A DNA stretch of 64,000 bases from Escherichia phage vB_VIPECOMC06. The stretch lies in sequence record PQ416618.1. One strand, 5' to 3'. Under the pieces are notes generated by a model that was not told where the DNA came from, ran no database searches, and was given only the letters and a program-made list of their open reading frames with translations. This document shows positions 49,887 to 59,976 of this stretch, piece after piece; positions within the stretch are counted from its first letter, which is position 1, and each line of letters starts with the position of its first letter. The position numbers and the translations under genes are program-made.

Positions 49887-52800
49887 TTATTCAACCCATT
49901 CAAATTTAACAGATTTATTCACAGGGTCTGGAATAATGCGGACATTACCAATCCTTAAGAAATCACGAATAGTAAGATTCCCCATTGTAGCATTATCAGA
50001 TGGTAAAGCGCCAATATCAGAAGGTTGAGGAGGGTTTCCACCATCAAATACCTGAACAAAACTCGACCAAGAATTTTTAGTTTTCTGCCATGTACGTGTC
50101 CAACGGGTTGTACGTGCTTCTGGAGTTGTTGGATAAGTAATCCAATCTTGGTAAAGCGAATCAAGTGTGTTACCAAACTGAGTCAATGTACCAGGAGATT
50201 TAACTTCTTCGCCACGTTCTAAGTATGGAAGTCCAGTCACTTCATTAGTTTTTTCAACCATTTTAAAATAACCTGGGAACTGGTTATAAGTGGCTGAATC
50301 GTTAATATCGATTGACCAGAATCCTACAGTATCAGATGTTGGTGCACGTGTATATAAATCAGATGTTTTAGTACCTTGAGAACGAATTCTCGAGTTAACC
50401 GTTAAACCACCTGAATTTATAGTAGCACCTTTAGCAATGATTAAGCTTTCACCAATCGTTACTTGACCAGATGTATTGTTAATAGCTAAAGGACGTAATC
50501 CATTAAATCCACCAGTCTGATCACCTGATGCAGTAAGCATAAAATAGGTATTAACAGCATCATTACGAATAAAGAATCCGTAATTACCACTAATAGCTCT
50601 AAAAGCATTCGATGATTTGCTGATGAATTCACCATTAGCAGTAACTGAACTACCAAATGTTGCAACGCCGTTCGCGTTCAAAGAACCTGAAGCGTTGACA
50701 TTTATCGGCATCACAGTACCATTGATACTAAACGTTATATTCCCAGCTTTATTGCGTTGAGAATAAAAGTGATTAGACGTTTCATCACCAACTTCAAATA
50801 CAGTAGAACGTGTTGTATCTGAACCGCCACCAAACTGATTTCCCCATACACGGATGCTCATTGACTGTGCTGGGTTAGTTCCAGTTTGAGGTCCTTTTTC
50901 AAAAATCAGACGAGTTGCTGTTCCAGCGTTAGAAATAGTTAATGTACTATTTGCCGAAACTGAACCACCAAACGTAGCAGTACTAGATGATACAAGAGGG
51001 GCACTCAGATTCGTTTGTTGGGTTAATGTTAGTGAACCATTAACCGTCTGTGCAATGTCCCTACGAATGAACTGAGATGAATCTAGGCCATCCAATAAAT
51101 TCGTGTCAGCAGCTTTTGCTTTTAATGGCAAGTAATTTGCTAATACACGGTTTAATTCATATGGTGATACTGCATAGCTATTTTTCTCATATAGCTCTAA
51201 GTTCTGTGTAGAACCGACTGTATCATTACCAACGAATGTAATTGAACCGGATGAAGTTTTAACGAATCCACGAATTGCTGTAGTAGCAGCCCATGTTGGT
51301 TCGTTCTGGACAATCCATTTTAAATTCTTAGGAGATACAGCAGTGTTCGCTGACGTTCCAGTCACAGTTTCAGTCTGGGTTGCAACCTTGATTACACCTT
51401 CAGACGTTTCAGTGGACTTAGTCCCTAAAAGCTTTTTAGGAGTAATAAGAACATCATCTAAAGTTCCTGCATTAGATTCTGCCTGGGTCGCTACGCGAAG
51501 TGTACCACGTTGTGTTTCATTTGCTTTAGAAATATCAAGAGTATAATGGTTCCACAAGGTTCCTTCTTCAATAAGTCCGGAATCAGAATTAACACTGGTA
51601 CGGTCAGAAGAATCAAAATGAGTTTTAATTTTCAGTGGAGTCGAGATACGAGTATCATCAGTTCCAGTATCAAATTCAACTTGCGTAGCAATTTCGGCTA
51701 TGCCGGATAATCCTTCCGTCGCTCTCCTATCATTTAACGTCTTAGGCGTTACTGCACGTGTATAATCAGTCCCAGCATTAGTTTCTGCTTGCGTAGCAAT
51801 TTCAATTAAACCAATACGTCCATCAGTAGAAGTTTTCTTATGTAGTGTTTCAGGAGTTACTACAGCATGAGAGTATCCAGACTGAGATTGTCCAGCAATT
51901 ACTTCACTATCAATAGCTAAAATTACTGCACCTTGTTGAGCATACGTTGCTTTATATTGGTCAAGGGCTTTAGGAGAAATAGTTAAATTATTTACGGTTT
52001 TATTATAAACGTTAGTGCCTGCGGCCCCACGAGTTTCGGCAGGAGTAGCAGAAGTAGTCGATACATATTTAACTATACCAGACAGCGTTTCAGAGCCCTG
52101 ACGTGCCTGTAATTTCTTAGGCGTAATAATCGTTGTGTCATCAAGACCAGCATCGGTTTCAGTCTGAGTAGCAATTTCAGCAAGACCGCGACGAGTTTCA
52201 GTTGCTGTACGCTCATTTAGTTTTTTAGGCGTAACAATAGTATCGTCCACAAATGATGCTGTGGAGTTCTGGTTAACTTGTGCTGTTGTAGCAATTTTAG
52301 CGATACCACGTCGAGCTTCAGTTGCTGTACGATTTGCCAACGTTTCAGGAGTAATAGCAACTTCTTTAGCCGGAGTATTCTCTAAATCAACATTTGCTTG
52401 CGCTTGAGTAGCAAGAGCAATAACACCTAAACGAGCTCGTGTAGCATCAGATCCAGCATCAACACGTTCTACCGTAGGGACATTCTGTTGCACAACCCAA
52501 TAATGAGTGTCAGAATCAGTGTCTTCGATATACGCTAATTCTAATACAGGAACATATGAAGTAGTGCCATTGAATTCTAGTTCAGTAACAGAGACCCATT
52601 GAGCATCAGGTGGATATTCAGAACGTTTAGGGAACTGAAGTAATGCGACAGAAGAAGCAATTGTATCACCTTCGGCAGCTTTAATTTTTACTGTTTGGCC
52701 TTTACGCATGTAGTTCATTGAAATTTTAACAGTGTCACCACTCAAAATTCCAGTAGGCAGCGTAAGATTAATAGTTCCGGTTGTAGCGTTATTTGTGCCA

Positions 52801-53762
52801 AAAATAAGAACTTCTTCGTTTGGACGAATATTTGAATCTGCACGGATAATACGAAGACGCGATTTCTGGTCGCCTTCCCATATACGCCATAAACTATTTG
52901 CAGCATCAAAAACAAAAAACGCGTCAGAGTCATTTCTGCCTTCGGCAATATGAGTCCCTACTTCACCAATAGACGTTGTATCATCAAATGTTTTAACAAT
53001 TGTATGATACAGTGGGTTTAATCTATCTAAATCGACTAGGCTGATTATATCACCATTGTTAGCATTACGTGGAAGTGTAATGTTGATTGGTGCTGCACTA
53101 GTAAAACGACGAACTATAAAATCATTTGCTTGTGCTTGATATGGTGTCGCAGGTGTAACAGTGATTGATTCTTTACCGTAATCAATGATATACATCTGCC
53201 ACAAACGATTACTAAACACAAACACTAGTTGTGAACGTGGTCGCGTCATTAAAACTGAACGAACTTGTTCGCCTCTAAAGTTTAAAATACTCTGCACAGA
53301 CGCGTTAATCTGTACTTTAACTGTCCCGGTTCTTCCACCAATATCAGCCAAAACAACAGTATCACCATCAACCGGCGCATTTGGCAATGTGAAAACCATA
53401 TCATTGCCGGCACCGGTGTTAACCGAAATCGAATCACCTGAAGAAAGTTGATAAGTCCCAGAAGCGACAGTTATCCATTGTGCATCTGTACGAACTGCAC
53501 GCCATTGTAAAAGGTTAAATGTCCCGGAAGGAGACACGATATCATTTATTGCTTGATATAAACGGTTGTCATAAAGAACAACAAATCCTTTGTTATATCC
53601 ACGCGTAGAATCATATACTTGAACGGTGTTTTCTTGTACCAGGAAGTCAACGTTTACGCCATCAGTACCTACTGTACGGTCGGCTAATGCTACGTTAACA
53701 ATCTTGTCGCCACCGGCGTCCAGACCGTCTTCGGCTCTGAACTTACGTTTGATGTCGGCCAT
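49887..53762 (-). CDS. 34: Long tail fibre proximal subunit gp34
   Basis: 1291 aa; internal ~30-aa repeats (TPKKLNERTATETRRGLAEIATQ...); late promoter upstream. Confidence 0.9.
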   Translation of the reverse strand: MADIKRKFRAEDGLDAGGDKIVNVALADRTVGTDGVNVDFLVQENTVQVYDSTRGYNKGFVVLYDNRLYQAINDIVSPSGTFNLLQWRAVRTDAQWITVASGTYQLSSGDSISVNTGAGNDMVFTLPNAPVDGDTVVLADIGGRTGTVKVQINASVQSILNFRGEQVRSVLMTRPRSQLVFVFSNRLWQMYIIDYGKESITVTPATPYQAQANDFIVRRFTSAAPINITLPRNANNGDIISLVDLDRLNPLYHTIVKTFDDTTSIGEVGTHIAEGRNDSDAFFVFDAANSLWRIWEGDQKSRLRIIRADSNIRPNEEVLIFGTNNATTGTINLTLPTGILSGDTVKISMNYMRKGQTVKIKAAEGDTIASSVALLQFPKRSEYPPDAQWVSVTELEFNGTTSYVPVLELAYIEDTDSDTHYWVVQQNVPTVERVDAGSDATRARLGVIALATQAQANVDLENTPAKEVAITPETLANRTATEARRGIAKIATTAQVNQNSTASFVDDTIVTPKKLNERTATETRRGLAEIATQTETDAGLDDTTIITPKKLQARQGSETLSGIVKYVSTTSATPAETRGAAGTNVYNKTVNNLTISPKALDQYKATYAQQGAVILAIDSEVIAGQSQSGYSHAVVTPETLHKKTSTDGRIGLIEIATQAETNAGTDYTRAVTPKTLNDRRATEGLSGIAEIATQVEFDTGTDDTRISTPLKIKTHFDSSDRTSVNSDSGLIEEGTLWNHYTLDISKANETQRGTLRVATQAESNAGTLDDVLITPKKLLGTKSTETSEGVIKVATQTETVTGTSANTAVSPKNLKWIVQNEPTWAATTAIRGFVKTSSGSITFVGNDTVGSTQNLELYEKNSYAVSPYELNRVLANYLPLKAKAADTNLLDGLDSSQFIRRDIAQTVNGSLTLTQQTNLSAPLVSSSTATFGGSVSANSTLTISNAGTATRLIFEKGPQTGTNPAQSMSIRVWGNQFGGGSDTTRSTVFEVGDETSNHFYSQRNKAGNITFSINGTVMPINVNASGSLNANGVATFGSSVTANGEFISKSSNAFRAISGNYGFFIRNDAVNTYFMLTASGDQTGGFNGLRPLAINNTSGQVTIGESLIIAKGATINSGGLTVNSRIRSQGTKTSDLYTRAPTSDTVGFWSIDINDSATYNQFPGYFKMVEKTNEVTGLPYLERGEEVKSPGTLTQFGNTLDSLYQDWITYPTTPEARTTRWTRTWQKTKNSWSSFVQVFDGGNPPQPSDIGALPSDNATMGNLTIRDFLRIGNVRIIPDPVNKSVKFEWVE

Positions 53763-53865: not shown

Positions 53866-54783
53866 ATGGATTTAGAAATGATGTTGGATGAAGATTACAA
53901 AGAAGGTATTGCACTTGCCGACTTTAGTAACATTGCATTGGCAGCTGCATTAAACAACTTTGAAGACGGCGATAAAATTACTGTTCCGATGGTTCGCCAT
54001 GTAATCTTGAATTCAATTCGTAAAAACGTAGTGATGTTCCGTAAGCAAGGCTATACAAAATTTGTATTGTGTATGGATAATGCTACTTCAGGTTATTGGC
54101 GTCGTGACTTTGCTTACTATTACAAGAAAAATCGTAAAACCGATCGTGAAGCTTCAAAGTGGGATTGGGAAGGATATTTTACTGCACTCCGTCAAGTTGT
54201 TGATGAGATTAAGAAATACATGCCATACGTTGTAATGGATATTGACAAGTATGAAGCGGATGACCATATCGGTGTATTAACTAAATATTTGTCATTAGCT
54301 GGACATAAGGTATGTATTGTTGCATCAGATGGTGACTTTACACAATTACACAAATATCCTAACGTTAAACAGTGGTCGCCACCACAGAAAAAATGGGTTA
54401 AAATTAAGAACGGTTCTGCTGAAATTGATTGCATGACTAAAATTCTTAAAGGTGACCGTAAAGACGGCGTTGCATCTGTTCGAGTTCGTGGCGACTTCTG
54501 GTTTACCAGAGTTGATGGTGAACGAACTCCGAGCATGAAAACAACGATTATTGAAGCAATTGCCAATGACCGTTCTCAAGCTGAAGTATTATTAAGTGCG
54601 GAAGAATATAAACGGTATCAAGAAAATTTGGTTCTCATTGATTTTGATTATATCCCTGATAATATTGCTTCAACCATTATAGAGTATTATAACTCATATA
54701 AACCACAACCTAAAGGCAAGATTTATTCATACTTTGTAAAATCTGGTCTTTCTAAATTAACAAGTGTAATTAATGAATTCTGA
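53866..54783 (+). CDS. rnh: RNase H (5'-3' exonuclease, FEN family)
   Basis: 305 aa; T4 RNase H length and position; acidic catalytic clusters (MDIDKYEADD, ASDGDF). Confidence 0.85.
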   Translation: MDLEMMLDEDYKEGIALADFSNIALAAALNNFEDGDKITVPMVRHVILNSIRKNVVMFRKQGYTKFVLCMDNATSGYWRRDFAYYYKKNRKTDREASKWDWEGYFTALRQVVDEIKKYMPYVVMDIDKYEADDHIGVLTKYLSLAGHKVCIVASDGDFTQLHKYPNVKQWSPPQKKWVKIKNGSAEIDCMTKILKGDRKDGVASVRVRGDFWFTRVDGERTPSMKTTIIEAIANDRSQAEVLLSAEEYKRYQENLVLIDFDYIPDNIASTIIEYYNSYKPQPKGKIYSYFVKSGLSKLTSVINEF

Positions 54784-54790
54784 GGTAAAC

Positions 54791-55060
54791 ATGGCTAAGA
54801 AAGAAGCAGTTGAATTTAATCAAGATGTGCATGGTGAAGAACTGGCTAAACTAGTCAAGGAAGCTTCCGATAACAAACTTAAAATTTCTGGTTATAATGA
54901 ACTGATTAAAGACATTCGTACTCGTGCTAAAGAAGAGCTTGGCGTCGATGGAAAAATGTTTAATCGTTTGTTAGCTCTTTATCATAAAGATGCTCGTGAT
55001 CAATTTGAAGCTGAAAACGAAGAGGTAGTCGAGCTTTATGACACAGTTTTCACTAAGTGA
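54791..55060 (+). CDS. dsbA: DsbA-like dsDNA-binding protein (late transcription accessory)
   Basis: 89 aa from ATG 54791 with RBS tgaggtaaac (track start 54773 lies inside rnh); between rnh and 33 as in T4. Confidence 0.6.
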   Translation: MAKKEAVEFNQDVHGEELAKLVKEASDNKLKISGYNELIKDIRTRAKEELGVDGKMFNRLLALYHKDARDQFEAENEEVVELYDTVFTK

Positions 55061-55376
55061 TATTAAACCGGTTGATGAGGCCGGTTTATCTGAACAAGAA
55101 TTAGCGGTAAAACACGATAAAGATGATATCGCTAAATTGCTTGACCGACAAGAAAACGGATTCATTATCGAATCCATGGTTGAACAATTTGGTATGTCTT
55201 ATTTAGAAGCAACAACTGCTTTCTTGGAAGAAAATTCTATTCCAGAAACACAATTTGCTAAATTTATTCCTACAGGAATTGTTGAAAAAATTACAAGCGA
55301 AGCAATTGATGAAAACATGCTTCGCCCATCAGTTGCTCGTGGTGAAAAAACTAATACGTTAGATTTCTTATTATGA
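55038..55376 (+). CDS. 33: Late transcription co-activator gp33
   Basis: 112 aa (T4 gp33 length); overlaps the dsbA 3' end; upstream of 59. Confidence 0.7.
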   Translation: MTQFSLSDIKPVDEAGLSEQELAVKHDKDDIAKLLDRQENGFIIESMVEQFGMSYLEATTAFLEENSIPETQFAKFIPTGIVEKITSEAIDENMLRPSVARGEKTNTLDFLL

Positions 55377-56056
55377 AATACGTTGTGTATAAAACTACCA
55401 ATAAAATAAATGGTAAAATTTATATAGGCGTACACAAAAAACATAAAGAGAAAGATTGGTATATTGGGTCTGGCCGCGCTATATTAGCGGCCAAAGCTAA
55501 ATACGGACTAAAAAATTTTTATACTGAAGTTCTTTATGAATATGATAATGACAAGGACGCCTATAAAAAAGAAGCAGAATTGGTTAATGAAGATTTTGTT
55601 TTGCGAACTGATACTTATAACCTGGTTCCAGGTGGTAAAGGTGGCCCTGGTAAAAAACAAAGTGATGAAGCTAAAAGGGCTATTTCACTTTCTAAAATAG
55701 GGAAACCTAGATCTGAAGAGACTAAGGCTAAAGTATCTAAAACCAGATTAGAAAGAAAAATACCATCACCTAATAAGGGTAAGAAACTATCTGAAGCTCA
55801 TAAATTAGCTTTGAGTAAAGTCCGAAAAGGGCGAAAAACGAATAAGCCGATGCCTGATTCAACCAAAGAAGCTCTTAGAATAGCAAATTCAAAGCCGCAT
55901 TCTAAAGAAAGAACTATTAAAAAACAAAAACCTATAATTATTGATGGTATAAAATACTCATCATGTACAGAAGTTTCGGATGTTTTTAATATTTCTGCAT
56001 CTCTAGTTACGTATAGACTTAAATCTTCAAAATGGCCTGGATGGAACTATGATTAA
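55373..56056 (+). CDS. GIY-YIG homing endonuclease (Seg-like) with NUMOD3-type DNA-binding repeats
   Basis: 227 aa; GIY-YIG core YVVYKTTNKINGKIYIGVH; four K-x-x-x-S-x-x-K-like repeats; overlaps the gp33 stop (ATGA) and the gp59 start. Confidence 0.7.
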   Translation: MKYVVYKTTNKINGKIYIGVHKKHKEKDWYIGSGRAILAAKAKYGLKNFYTEVLYEYDNDKDAYKKEAELVNEDFVLRTDTYNLVPGGKGGPGKKQSDEAKRAISLSKIGKPRSEETKAKVSKTRLERKIPSPNKGKKLSEAHKLALSKVRKGRKTNKPMPDSTKEALRIANSKPHSKERTIKKQKPIIIDGIKYSSCTEVSDVFNISASLVTYRLKSSKWPGWNYD

Positions 56057-56702
56057 AATACGCATGCCTCCTGACGGAGAACGTTATATTAATGGTAAAT
56101 CAGTATATAAACTATACTTGATGTGCAAAAACCACTTTGGTGGTCGGTATGACGTAATCAAATATAACTGGTGCATGCGTGTTTCGGATAATGCGTATCA
56201 AAAACGCCGAGATAAATATTTCTTTGAAAAACTAGCAGAGAAATATAAATTGAAGGAACTCACCTTGATATTTATAAGCAACTTAGTTGCTAACCAAGAC
56301 GCATGGATTGGTGAGATATCAGACGCTGATGCATTAGTTTTCTATAGGGAATATATTGGACGTCTCAAACAAGCCAAGGAGACGTTTGCTGAAGATGTAC
56401 GTAACATCTACTATTTCAGTAAGAAAGTGGAAGTTAGTGCGCTTCAAGAGATATTTGATTATAATAACAACGTTCAGTCGAGCTACATATTCAAATTGCT
56501 ACAAAGCAATATAATTTCATTTGAGACTTTCTTATTGTTGGACTCATTTTTGAATATTATAGATAAGCACGACGAACTTACTGACAATTTGGTCTGGCAA
56601 AATTATTCTACCAAATTAAAGGCATATCGAAAAATACTTCAAATCGATGGAAATGCTGCTAAGAAATTGTTCATAGAAACAATCAAATCATGTAGGTATT
56701 AA
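56049..56702 (+). CDS. 59: Helicase loader gp59
   Basis: 217 aa; MIKIRMPPDGERYINGKSVYKLY... matches T4 gp59. Confidence 0.9.
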   Translation: MIKIRMPPDGERYINGKSVYKLYLMCKNHFGGRYDVIKYNWCMRVSDNAYQKRRDKYFFEKLAEKYKLKELTLIFISNLVANQDAWIGEISDADALVFYREYIGRLKQAKETFAEDVRNIYYFSKKVEVSALQEIFDYNNNVQSSYIFKLLQSNIISFETFLLLDSFLNIIDKHDELTDNLVWQNYSTKLKAYRKILQIDGNAAKKLFIETIKSCRY

Positions 56703-56731
56703 GCTTTATTTCTTGTGTGTTAAAATTACTT

Positions 56732-56739
56732 TATAAATA
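56732..56739 (+). promoter_or_regulatory. T4 late promoter TATAAATA upstream of gene 32
   Basis: Exact TATAAATA about 80 nt upstream of the gene 32 ATG. Confidence 0.6.
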
Positions 56740-56749
56740 AATCATACCA

Positions 56750-56819
56750 GCTACGAGGTATAAGTGTCGTAGCAACCAACTGTAAATAAATTAAATAATC
56801 TAAATAAAGGTAATAATCC
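56750..56819 (+). promoter_or_regulatory. Gene 32 autoregulatory leader: hairpin/pseudoknot followed by an unstructured (U)UAAA-repeat tract
   Basis: Stem gctacga / tcgtagc (56750-56773), then tgtaaataaattaaataatctaaataaaggtaataatcc up to the ATG. Confidence 0.6.
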
Positions 56820-57719
56820 ATGTTTAAACGTAAATCTACTGCTGACCTCGCTGCTCAAATGGCTAAACTGAATGGTAACAAAGGTTTCTCTTCAGAAGAT
56901 AAAGGCGAATGGAAGCTGAAACTCGATGCATCTGGTAATGGTCAAGCGGTAATTCGTTTCTTGCCAGCAAAAACTGATGATGCACTACCATTTGCAATTC
57001 TTGTTAACCACGGTTTCAAGAAAAACGGTAAATGGTATATTGAAAATTGCTCTTCTACACATGGTGATTATGACTCTTGTCCTGTATGTCAGTACATTAG
57101 TAAAAATGACCTGTACAATACTAACAAAACTGAATATTCTCAACTGAAACGTAAAACTTCTTATTGGGCTAATATTCTGGTTGTTAAAGACCCTCAAGCT
57201 CCAGATAACGAAGGTAAAGTATTTAAATATCGTTTCGGTAAAAAGATTTGGGACAAAATTAATGCAATGATTGCAGTTGATACTGAAATGGGTGAAACTC
57301 CAGTTGATGTTACTTGCCCGTTTGAAGGTGCTAACTTCGTTCTTAAAGCTAAGCAGGTTTCTGGTTTTAGCAACTATGACGAATCTAAATTCTTGGGTCA
57401 ATCTGAAATTCCTCGTATTAATGACGAAGCATTCCAGAAAGAACTATATGACCAGATGGTAGACCTTACTACTTTGACGGCTAAAGACCAGTTCAAATCC
57501 TTTGAAAAATTAAATGAATCTTTCGCTAAGGTTCTTGGTACTGCCGCTCTTGGTGGTGCAGCAGCCGCAGCAGCTTCTGTTGCTGATAAAGTTGCTTCTG
57601 ACCTTGACGATTTTGATAAAGACATGGAAGCCTTTAGTTCTGCAAAAACTGAAGATGACTTCATGAGTTCCTCGTCTTCTGACGATGGCGACCTCGATGA
57701 CCTGTTAGCTGGTCTATAA
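56820..57719 (+). CDS. 32: Single-stranded DNA-binding protein gp32
   Basis: 299 aa; [19 protein letters not shown]...; zinc site ([10 protein letters not shown]); acidic C-terminus. Confidence 0.95.
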
Positions 57720-57832: not shown

Positions 57833-58219
57833 ATGGAAATCGGAAAATCTTATATCATTAACCCTTTATTTAAAGACGACTTTGCTAACGAGTGCCGTTG
57901 CAATGCAATGATGCTAAATTTAATAGAGAAGCACGGACCTAGTTTTGTTGTAGATGAAATGGAAAGTGATGATTGTGCTGGTGACTGTGTGGTACGTGTA
58001 ACTATGGAAGACGGCACTGAATACATGGCCGGTGGCCCACTTGAGACGTATTTTGAGATTTACTCTGAAGAATTCAAATACTTTACTGAGGTAACTTTAG
58101 AAAAGCCTCAACCTACTAACGAAGGTATAACTTTAGGTGTAACAAAAATCCATTGTATCGTAGATGAAACCAACGTCGACGAAATCATCAAACTTTTGCA
58201 AAAAACTTTTAAAAAGTAG
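57833..58219 (+). CDS. Hypothetical protein (128 aa)
   Basis: RBS gaggaaat; early promoter upstream. Confidence 0.45.
   Translation: MEIGKSYIINPLFKDDFANECRCNAMMLNLIEKHGPSFVVDEMESDDCAGDCVVRVTMEDGTEYMAGGPLETYFEIYSEEFKYFTEVTLEKPQPTNEGITLGVTKIHCIVDETNVDEIIKLLQKTFKK

Positions 58220-58280: not shown

Positions 58281-59976
<1,696 letters not shown>

Follow-up and report, generated by a model that had tools for sequence, protein, structure and literature searches.

Seg-type endonucleases shape the genomes of T-even phages by forced local gene conversion, and the exclusion of markers in crosses is explained by this activity. One of them, SegG, is said to cut hundreds of base pairs away from its own gene, a finding attributed to Liu et al. 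in 2003. Encoded by free-standing genes that are often promoter-less cassettes, the Seg enzymes have their cut sites in a flanking gene, and co-conversion follows (PMC2988022). SegG, whose target lies in a flanking essential gene, drives both co-conversion and marker exclusion (PMC2988022), and for SegD of phage T4 mobility is given as 'ND' and the target as unknown (PMC2988022). A literature search for an element of this kind between genes 33 and 59 found no published description.

The window analysed here, a stretch of 64,000 nt from Escherichia phage vB_VIPECOMC06 (PQ416618.1), belongs to a Mosigvirus, i.e. an RB69-like T-even phage, and holds such an element. With a probability of roughly 0.8, the ORF at 55373-56056 is a free-standing Seg-type GIY-YIG homing endonuclease gene that forms a 676-bp selfish cassette at the ATGA shared by genes 33 and 59, where cleavage, target, homing and mode of expression are what we infer from the comparisons below.

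As identified by Pfam, the locus starts with gp34 on the minus strand (49887-53762), followed by rnh (53866-54783), dsbA (54773-55060) and, on the plus strand, gene 33 for the late-transcription coactivator (55038-55376; Trans_coact, 3.5e-26) as the upstream neighbour of the endonuclease. The downstream neighbour and predicted target gene is gene 59 for the helicase loader (56049-56702, plus strand; T4_Gp59_N, 1.9e-49; T4_Gp59_C, 1e-43), and gene 32 (56820-57719) follows after a spacer of 117 nt, in which no gene is located. The endonuclease ORF itself, recognized by its reading frame, PHROG 314, the family profile and Foldseek, lies on the plus strand, starts with ATG and encodes 227 aa, with the stop codon included in its coordinates. 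Its ATG overlaps by 4 nt with the TGA stop of gene 33 within the ATGA at 55373-55376, and gene 59 starts 8 nt before the end of the endonuclease TAA, the overlap at 56049-56056 reading ATGATTAA. The preliminary description of this DNA had placed the ORF between the stop of gene 33 and the first 8 nt of gene 59, and every coordinate that it gave for the ORF and both overlaps is accurate. The insertion is bordered by two plus-strand copies of TATGA, the left one (55372-55376) containing the ATGA overlap of gene 33 stop and endonuclease start and the right one (56048-56052) lying where the gene 59 start is located inside the last endonuclease codons.

That the gene is intron-less and free-standing, as had been proposed, agrees with its location between two intact genes and with the lack of any Rfam family, group I intron included, within 54700-57000. 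Paralogues of the endonuclease are not present elsewhere in the window. The local deviation in GC content that had been suggested as a check is absent, the ORF ranging from 0.31 to 0.37 versus 0.33 to 0.37 in the flanks; a foreign origin can be read neither from GC content nor from codon usage, which are uninformative here, and solely the AT skew is raised, a consequence of the Lys codons.

The protein has the I-TevI/Seg architecture, in which a GIY-YIG domain at the N-terminus is followed by four NUMOD3-like helices and, at the C-terminus, by a helix-turn-helix of the I-TevI type. PHROG 314, annotated as 'homing endonuclease', matches over the full length (E = 4e-55). The GIY-YIG catalytic domain covers aa 1-90 (55373-55642, plus strand) as judged from family alignment, profile, Foldseek and a structure model with pLDDT of 83-92 in this domain, and its N-terminus reads MKYVVYKTTNKINGKIYIGVH, the canonical beginning that the preliminary description had seen. 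On the single sequence SegE_GIY-YIG scores 19.9 bits, under the Pfam cutoff of 25, so that the family profile and the structure model are needed for confirmation. Homologues of the endonuclease were gathered for this purpose, and 32 of them were aligned to give the profile and the input for AlphaFold. In this alignment Y6, N10, N13, K15, Y17, G19, H21, E67, Y82 and N83 are invariant, among them Y6 and Y17 of the two Tyr motifs, the catalytic Glu E67 and the Asn N83 as signature residues, and the profile matches the I-TevI catalytic domain 1mk0 with E = 1.8e-4 over profile positions 6-85, as well as 1ln0. The AF2 model reaches a mean pLDDT of 81, and the three best PDB folds that Foldseek returns for it are 1i3j and 1mk0, each with probability 1.00 and the latter with a TM(target) of 0.64, followed by I-HmuI. 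In addition, the orthologue of phage IME540 clears the Pfam cutoffs for both GIY-YIG (PF01541) and SegE_GIY-YIG (PF19835).

The linker (aa 93-178; 55649-55906, plus strand) consists of four helical repeats that are rich in Lys and Ser and resemble NUMOD3, as supported by Pfam, by the repeat units and by the model helices. Pfam NUMOD3 itself reports one unit at aa 93-122 with 20.7 bits versus a cutoff of 20.4; by inspection the units are at aa 93-113, 110-129, 136-154 and 159-178, each matched by one of the predicted helices at 98-108, 115-128, 141-151 and 162-173, so the four repeats noted earlier on are borne out. The C-terminal I-TevI-type helix-turn-helix DNA-binding domain (aa 183-226; 55919-56050, plus strand) is found on the single sequence by Pfam I-TevI_DNA-bd (PF20987, E = 5.7e-11) and by phmmer, for which the I-TevI DNA-binding domain 1i3j is the sole match in the PDB (E = 5e-4; SLVTYRLKSSKW aligned to GLVTYRVKSDKW), and the 32-sequence profile matches the same structure with E = 6e-6.

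In the alignment, the essential Arg27 of I-TevI has no aligned residue in this endonuclease because the subfamily has a 6-residue deletion in that region, a deletion common to T6 SegH and T4 SegD. Position 35 is Arg in this protein and K, S or A in the orthologues. On the basis of the alignment, the invariant K15, H21 or K43 might substitute for the catalytic arginine.

A megablast of 54700-57000 against 50,697 phage records delineated the distribution of the gene. The full query is covered in 28 of 154 Mosigvirus records, which carry the endonuclease, and about 124-126 records with flanks of 95-99% identity cover 71% of the query and are without the ORF; these counts include RefSeq/GenBank duplicates and 13 near-identical LF82 isolates. 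The gene is thus present in about one in five closely related phages. The Mosigvirus loci stem from GenBank phage records, as IMG/VR yielded just one. In the empty phages (JN02, ST0, JS09, RB69, PhAPEC2, mar005P1 and others) genes 33 and 59 overlap directly by ATGA, the empty site reading GATTTCTTATTATGATTAAAATACGC, and filled and empty alleles differ by exactly 676 bp with TATGA on both sides, identical to the spacing of the two TATGA copies. The filled junction is the same in 11/11 filled loci examined. Phages with the gene are spread over the Mosigvirus species 25307, JS09, mar005p1, utam and shsm521, and the namesake isolates JS09 and mar005P1 are empty. The comparison with relatives lacking the insertion, recommended in the preliminary description together with the remark that universal presence of the ORF would speak against mobility, has therefore yielded a presence/absence polymorphism of 28 filled versus about 126 empty records with a precise ATGA empty junction. 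A clean and polymorphic 676-bp insertion that encodes a protein of I-TevI/Seg architecture supports the Seg-type mobile element between genes 33 and 59 that had been postulated, and each part of this interpretation that computation can address holds. Related GenBank records already label the gene 'homing endonuclease'.

Among the carriers, the nucleotide diversity of the endonuclease gene equals that of the flanks (0.032), its pS of 0.11 is as deep as theirs and pN/pS is 0.11 (10 intact copies), which indicates an old resident of the Mosigvirus gene pool under purifying selection. The corresponding pN/pS values of genes 33 and 59 are 0.09 and 0.06. The value for the endonuclease holds across the whole ORF including the catalytic domain. 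The copy of AV116 is frameshifted at about nt 306, after the catalytic domain.

The presence of the endonuclease gene is linked to sequence variation in its downstream neighbour. In an alignment of 8.3 kb from 11 filled and 10 empty Mosigviruses, 5 of 1,478 variable sites reach an allele-frequency difference of at least 0.7 between filled and empty genomes. All five (56108, 56130, 56132, 56139 and 56140) are located at nt 60, 82, 84, 91 and 92 of gene 59, a patch of the plus strand at 56108-56140 that was delineated by the allele-frequency comparison and a probe; no other site in the 8.3 kb, and none in gene 33, is associated with the endonuclease. The filled genomes possess T/A/C/GG (11/11) and the empty ones C/C/A/AA (9/10). 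At the level of gp59, the codon of Tyr20 is changed from TAC to TAT, Gln28 to Asn and Asn31 to Gly; as T4-type gp59 has Gln28 and Asn31, the empty state looks ancestral. The nearer sites 56072, 56075 and 56093, at 24-45 bp from the insertion, are unassociated or weakly associated and those at a distance of 60-92 bp perfectly, which argues against a simple decay of linkage.

A 48-nt patch probe applied to the 154 Mosigvirus records assigned 58 to the filled type and 96 to the empty type. The patch is carried by 28/28 filled versus about 30/126 empty records, an association with Fisher p = 7e-15 that is uncorrected for phylogeny and duplicate records. Since about 30 empty records, including F2, mobillu, G53, a20 and the LF82 series among others, have the filled-type patch, it is not diagnostic of the endonuclease gene, and the haplotype could be older than the insertion and have served as its background. 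Carriers of other genera have no common 'immune' amino-acid signature in gp59; residues 28 and 31 vary freely. Judged by its position and association, the patch probably marks a zone of immunity, recognition or cleavage that would lie downstream of the insertion at a distance of less than 100 bp. The endonuclease-linked patch in gene 59 and the prediction of a target and immunity zone are new here.

A second filled/empty comparison is provided by CC31-like contigs, two of which (L046 and L047) carry the orthologue P0013. Among 189 variable sites over 3.1 kb, 20/20 fixed differences between filled and empty contigs are located in nt 24-84 of gene 59, mostly at third codon positions. Within this tract the identity between L046 and its empty relatives (L007-L009) falls to 70%, whereas outside of it gene 59 of L046 and L047 is 97-98% identical to them, and the 42-nt core of the tract shows one mismatch to L048, a contig of another carrier lineage with a closely related endonuclease. 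The tract has the look of a co-conversion tract from a divergent donor. It begins at the insertion and is restricted to the side of gene 59, for which the simplest explanation would be a break in gene 59 with conversion of the intervening stretch on every occasion. The two tracts end distally at nt 84 and nt 92, and these edges would then bracket the expected cut or recognition site. The patches of Mosigvirus and the CC31-like contigs have only one change in the same direction, C to T at nt 60 of gene 59, and a synonymous T is present at this position in all six carrier lineages examined. C60 is a likely key base of the predicted cut site. The sensitive alleles of both genera were also inspected by eye for a shared CNNNG motif of the kind cleaved by I-TevI, with nothing consistent emerging.

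The wider family consists of a tight clade of full-length relatives with 46-58% identity and a broad cloud of Seg-like proteins. Wherever the context of a tight-clade member was examined, its gene sits between genes 33 and 59 and overlaps gene 33 by the same 4 nt. These orthologues occur in the Dhakavirus IME540, in a contig similar to Serratia phage LC53 (with a further one, L013), in a CC31-like contig and in two further T4-like contigs. In at least four other T4-like lineages the endonuclease thus keeps to one and the same genomic junction, and this cross-genus site fidelity is an addition of the present analysis.

If the I-TevI/Seg paradigm applies, the C-terminal helix-turn-helix and the NUMOD3 linker would bind a specific sequence in a co-infecting phage without the gene, upon which the tethered GIY-YIG domain would introduce a double-strand break. 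Repair from the carrier genome would copy the gene and the DNA up to the cut into the recipient, resulting in intronless homing and local marker exclusion. The comparative data suggest a recognition and cut site in the first ~25-95 nt of gene 59, and the variant patch at 56108-56140 would protect the carrier genomes. A footprint in gene 59 linked to the insertion is what homing predicts.

With respect to expression, the plus strand possesses no T4 late promoter TATAAATA in the ORF or just before it, the nearest being at 56732 before gene 32, and a sigma-70-like scan for the endonuclease performed no better than on shuffled sequences and returned no convincing site. Likewise, in the annotation of the related phage SA79RD an early promoter precedes rnh, a middle promoter lies within gene 59 and gene 32 is preceded by a late promoter, with none given for the endonuclease. 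The apparent absence of an own promoter fits the 'promoter-less cassette' class, in which segC, segF and segG have been placed (PMC2988022). Probably, the endonuclease is co-transcribed with rnh, dsbA and genes 33 and 59 without a late promoter of its own, and its translation would be coupled to gene 33 at the start site that serves gene 59 in the empty genomes. The start of gene 59 is located inside the last endonuclease codons behind GGATGGAAC, and the 3' end of the endonuclease gene would supply the new start context. An RNA hairpin over the shared AUG and the end of gene 33 (55337-55376) was considered and discarded: its prediction is the same for filled and empty alleles, but it is weak and not significant (z = -1.2).

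Taken jointly, the data would describe an endonuclease lineage that keeps to the junction of genes 33 and 59 in at least five T4-like lineages and, in contrast to those free-standing Seg enzymes that have been characterised, cuts the 5' end of gene 59 at a distance of no more than ~100 bp from its own gene and spares its carriers by a recoded patch that changes two gp59 residues, a natural snapshot of the homing cycle of an intron-less element. To this composite picture, drawn from sequence comparison, we assign about even odds. Some of the evidence could be accommodated by a genuine homing endonuclease for which the gene 59 patch is a hitchhiking haplotype, the insertion having arisen once on it and the cut site being located elsewhere, for instance deeper in gene 59 or within gene 32 or 33, comparable with the distant sites of SegF and SegG. 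The same patch in about 30 empty genomes, the natural variation of gp59 residues 28 and 31 across genera, the single same-direction change between the patches of the two genera and the fact that known free-standing endonucleases mostly cut hundreds of bp from their own gene are in favour of such a scenario. It is nevertheless a possible rather than a likely one, as the association is not monotonic with distance (unassociated or weak at 24-45 bp, perfect at 60-92 bp), no other associated site is found in 8.3 kb and in the CC31-like lineage an independent event has altered the same ~60 bp of gene 59, leaving the remainder of the 3.1 kb untouched.

That the gene is a decaying or domesticated relic without homing, kept since its deletion would disturb translation of gene 59, which starts inside the endonuclease 3' end, appears doubtful. 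The ORF does take over the coupled start of gene 59, which restarts in its last codons, and the missing evident counterpart of I-TevI Arg27, the sub-threshold Pfam GIY-YIG score, the frameshifted copy of AV116 and a synonymous diversity as deep as in the flanks, which suggests long residence and not a recent sweep, would be expected from a relic. However, a pN/pS of 0.11 also in the catalytic domain and the invariance of Y6, Y17, E67 and N83 in 32 family members are difficult to reconcile with decay, the clean empty junctions in most relatives demonstrate that loss or absence is tolerated, and a transfer that happened fairly recently is implied by the recoded tract that gene 59 has in a second genus. 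Yet more remote, and in our view very improbable, is a GIY-YIG nuclease with a non-homing role, such as degradation of host DNA as by T4 EndoII or attack on competing phages or satellites, with the variable presence reflecting turnover of accessory genes. The literature describes GIY-YIG domains also in non-homing nucleases such as EndoII (PMC1564403) and genes derived from homing endonuclease genes with defence roles in other phages (PMC10448857), but a full I-TevI-like sequence-specific DNA-binding module, the strict confinement of the lineage to one junction across genera and an adjacent recoded tract that corresponds to a homing-type footprint are at odds with such a function.

Should cleavage at the 5' end of gene 59 with protection by the patch be correct, the Mosigvirus alleles would fall into predicted-sensitive empty (~62%), empty with a predicted-resistant patch (~19%) and filled (~18%) classes, plus occasional frameshifted copies. 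Isolated phages offer natural alleles of each, namely RB69 and JS09 as predicted-sensitive, F2 and mobillu as empty and predicted-resistant, and SSE1 and Bas45 PaulHMueller as filled. With respect to applicability, the element is of relevance for the engineering of phages and for mixtures of Mosigviruses in therapy cocktails, since the locus of co-infecting relatives would be overwritten by that of the carriers. The Seg-type homing endonuclease is conventionally built and changes no concept in the field; with it, a further mobile site would exist next to that of SegG in the cluster of replication genes that includes rnh, 33, 59 and 32.

Among the named Seg proteins, SegD and SegH are the closest sequence relatives of the endonuclease. 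SegD of T4, whose gene is located between genes 23 and 24, is the closest T4 protein with 35% identity over the full length (E = 5e-39), and SegH of T6 and RB3, encoded between nrdD and nrdG, is ~33-34% identical. All three have the N-terminal pattern Y.Y..TN.ING K.YIG.H ... Y.GSG with the 6-residue deletion compared with I-TevI, NUMOD3-type linkers and a free-standing gene. They differ in their sites, which are 23/24 for SegD, nrdD/nrdG for SegH and 33/59 here, and the C-terminus of SegD diverges from the I-TevI-type helix-turn-helix, which is well conserved in the present protein.

T4 SegG, encoded between genes 59 and 32 and cutting gene 32, likewise belongs to the free-standing GIY-YIG homing endonucleases and is encoded in the same cluster of replication genes. 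Orthology was considered and rejected, as the 210-aa ORF at the 59/32 position of the T4-type locus gives a BLASTP E of 9.8 and lies on the other side of gene 59, and the footprint found here is within about 100 bp of the insertion, in contrast to the distant cut of SegG. In this respect the predicted cut is similar to that of I-TevI, the endonuclease of the T4 td group I intron, which also cuts close to its insertion site. The two proteins have the same two-domain architecture, with profile and fold matches to 1mk0/1ln0 and 1i3j, but I-TevI is encoded within an intron, contains a zinc finger in the linker and makes use of Arg27, whereas the endonuclease between genes 33 and 59 is free-standing and Arg27 is without an aligned counterpart.

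The 33|59 endonuclease does not read as intact in every record that carries it. In the copy of Escherichia phage AV116 (locus L032, 3674-4358), a 1-nt insertion accompanied by a substitution at about nt 306, which changes AAAAGG-GCT to AAAAGGTCCT, brings the protein to an early end at aa 107, and the sole annotation for this copy in the AV116 record is the downstream ORF of 138 aa. The disruption reflects either decay of the gene or a sequencing error. At a second place in the same record (L032, 7426-8302), thymidylate synthase is annotated as shortened, with one more 'homing endonuclease' directly after it; an insertion in td, of either an intron or an endonuclease, is the probable cause. In the window (59116-59976), td is one unbroken ORF of 286 aa.

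With respect to classification, the GenBank taxonomy line of both PaulHMueller (L002) and F2 (L039) reads Tequatrovirus, while the two phages are 97-98.5% identical to Mosigvirus genomes at the 33|59 locus; judged by this identity, the labels of the two records are probably inconsistent.

The 3' terminus of gene 33 holds a predicted A-U/G-U-rich hairpin (window 55337-55376), composed of the same bases in empty genomes (L001, 2138-2177), which pairs with the shared AUGA start. This hairpin could enforce translational coupling, but it scores no better than shuffled sequence (z about -1.2).

Downstream, Mosigviruses differ in how many small ORFs lie between gene 32 and frd, and the frd.2-like ORF (window 57833-58219) is far more diverse in endonuclease carriers (pi 0.090) than in the sampled empty genomes (0.023). 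The ORF and the 32-frd interval look like a mosaic, hyperplastic region.

Variation also extends to the other junction of gene 59, which in the window consists of a spacer of 117 nt only (56703-56819). Two carriers of the 33|59 endonuclease, IME540 (L025, 3845-4462) and the phage of locus L050 (4346-5011), possess an additional ORF of 205-221 aa at 59|32, which, as a Pfam search gave no match at E <= 0.01, may be a further uncharacterised mobile gene. These ORFs occupy the same junction as segG in T4. Furthermore, T4-type loci from IMG/VR vary in the presence of a SegG-like 59|32 ORF of 210 aa with the N-terminus MNIVYWFTFEDR (L005 and L012, 3156-3788, compared against L004 and L006). This polymorphism indicates that gene 59 has endonuclease landing sites at both junctions, with endonucleases landing at either one in different T-even lineages.
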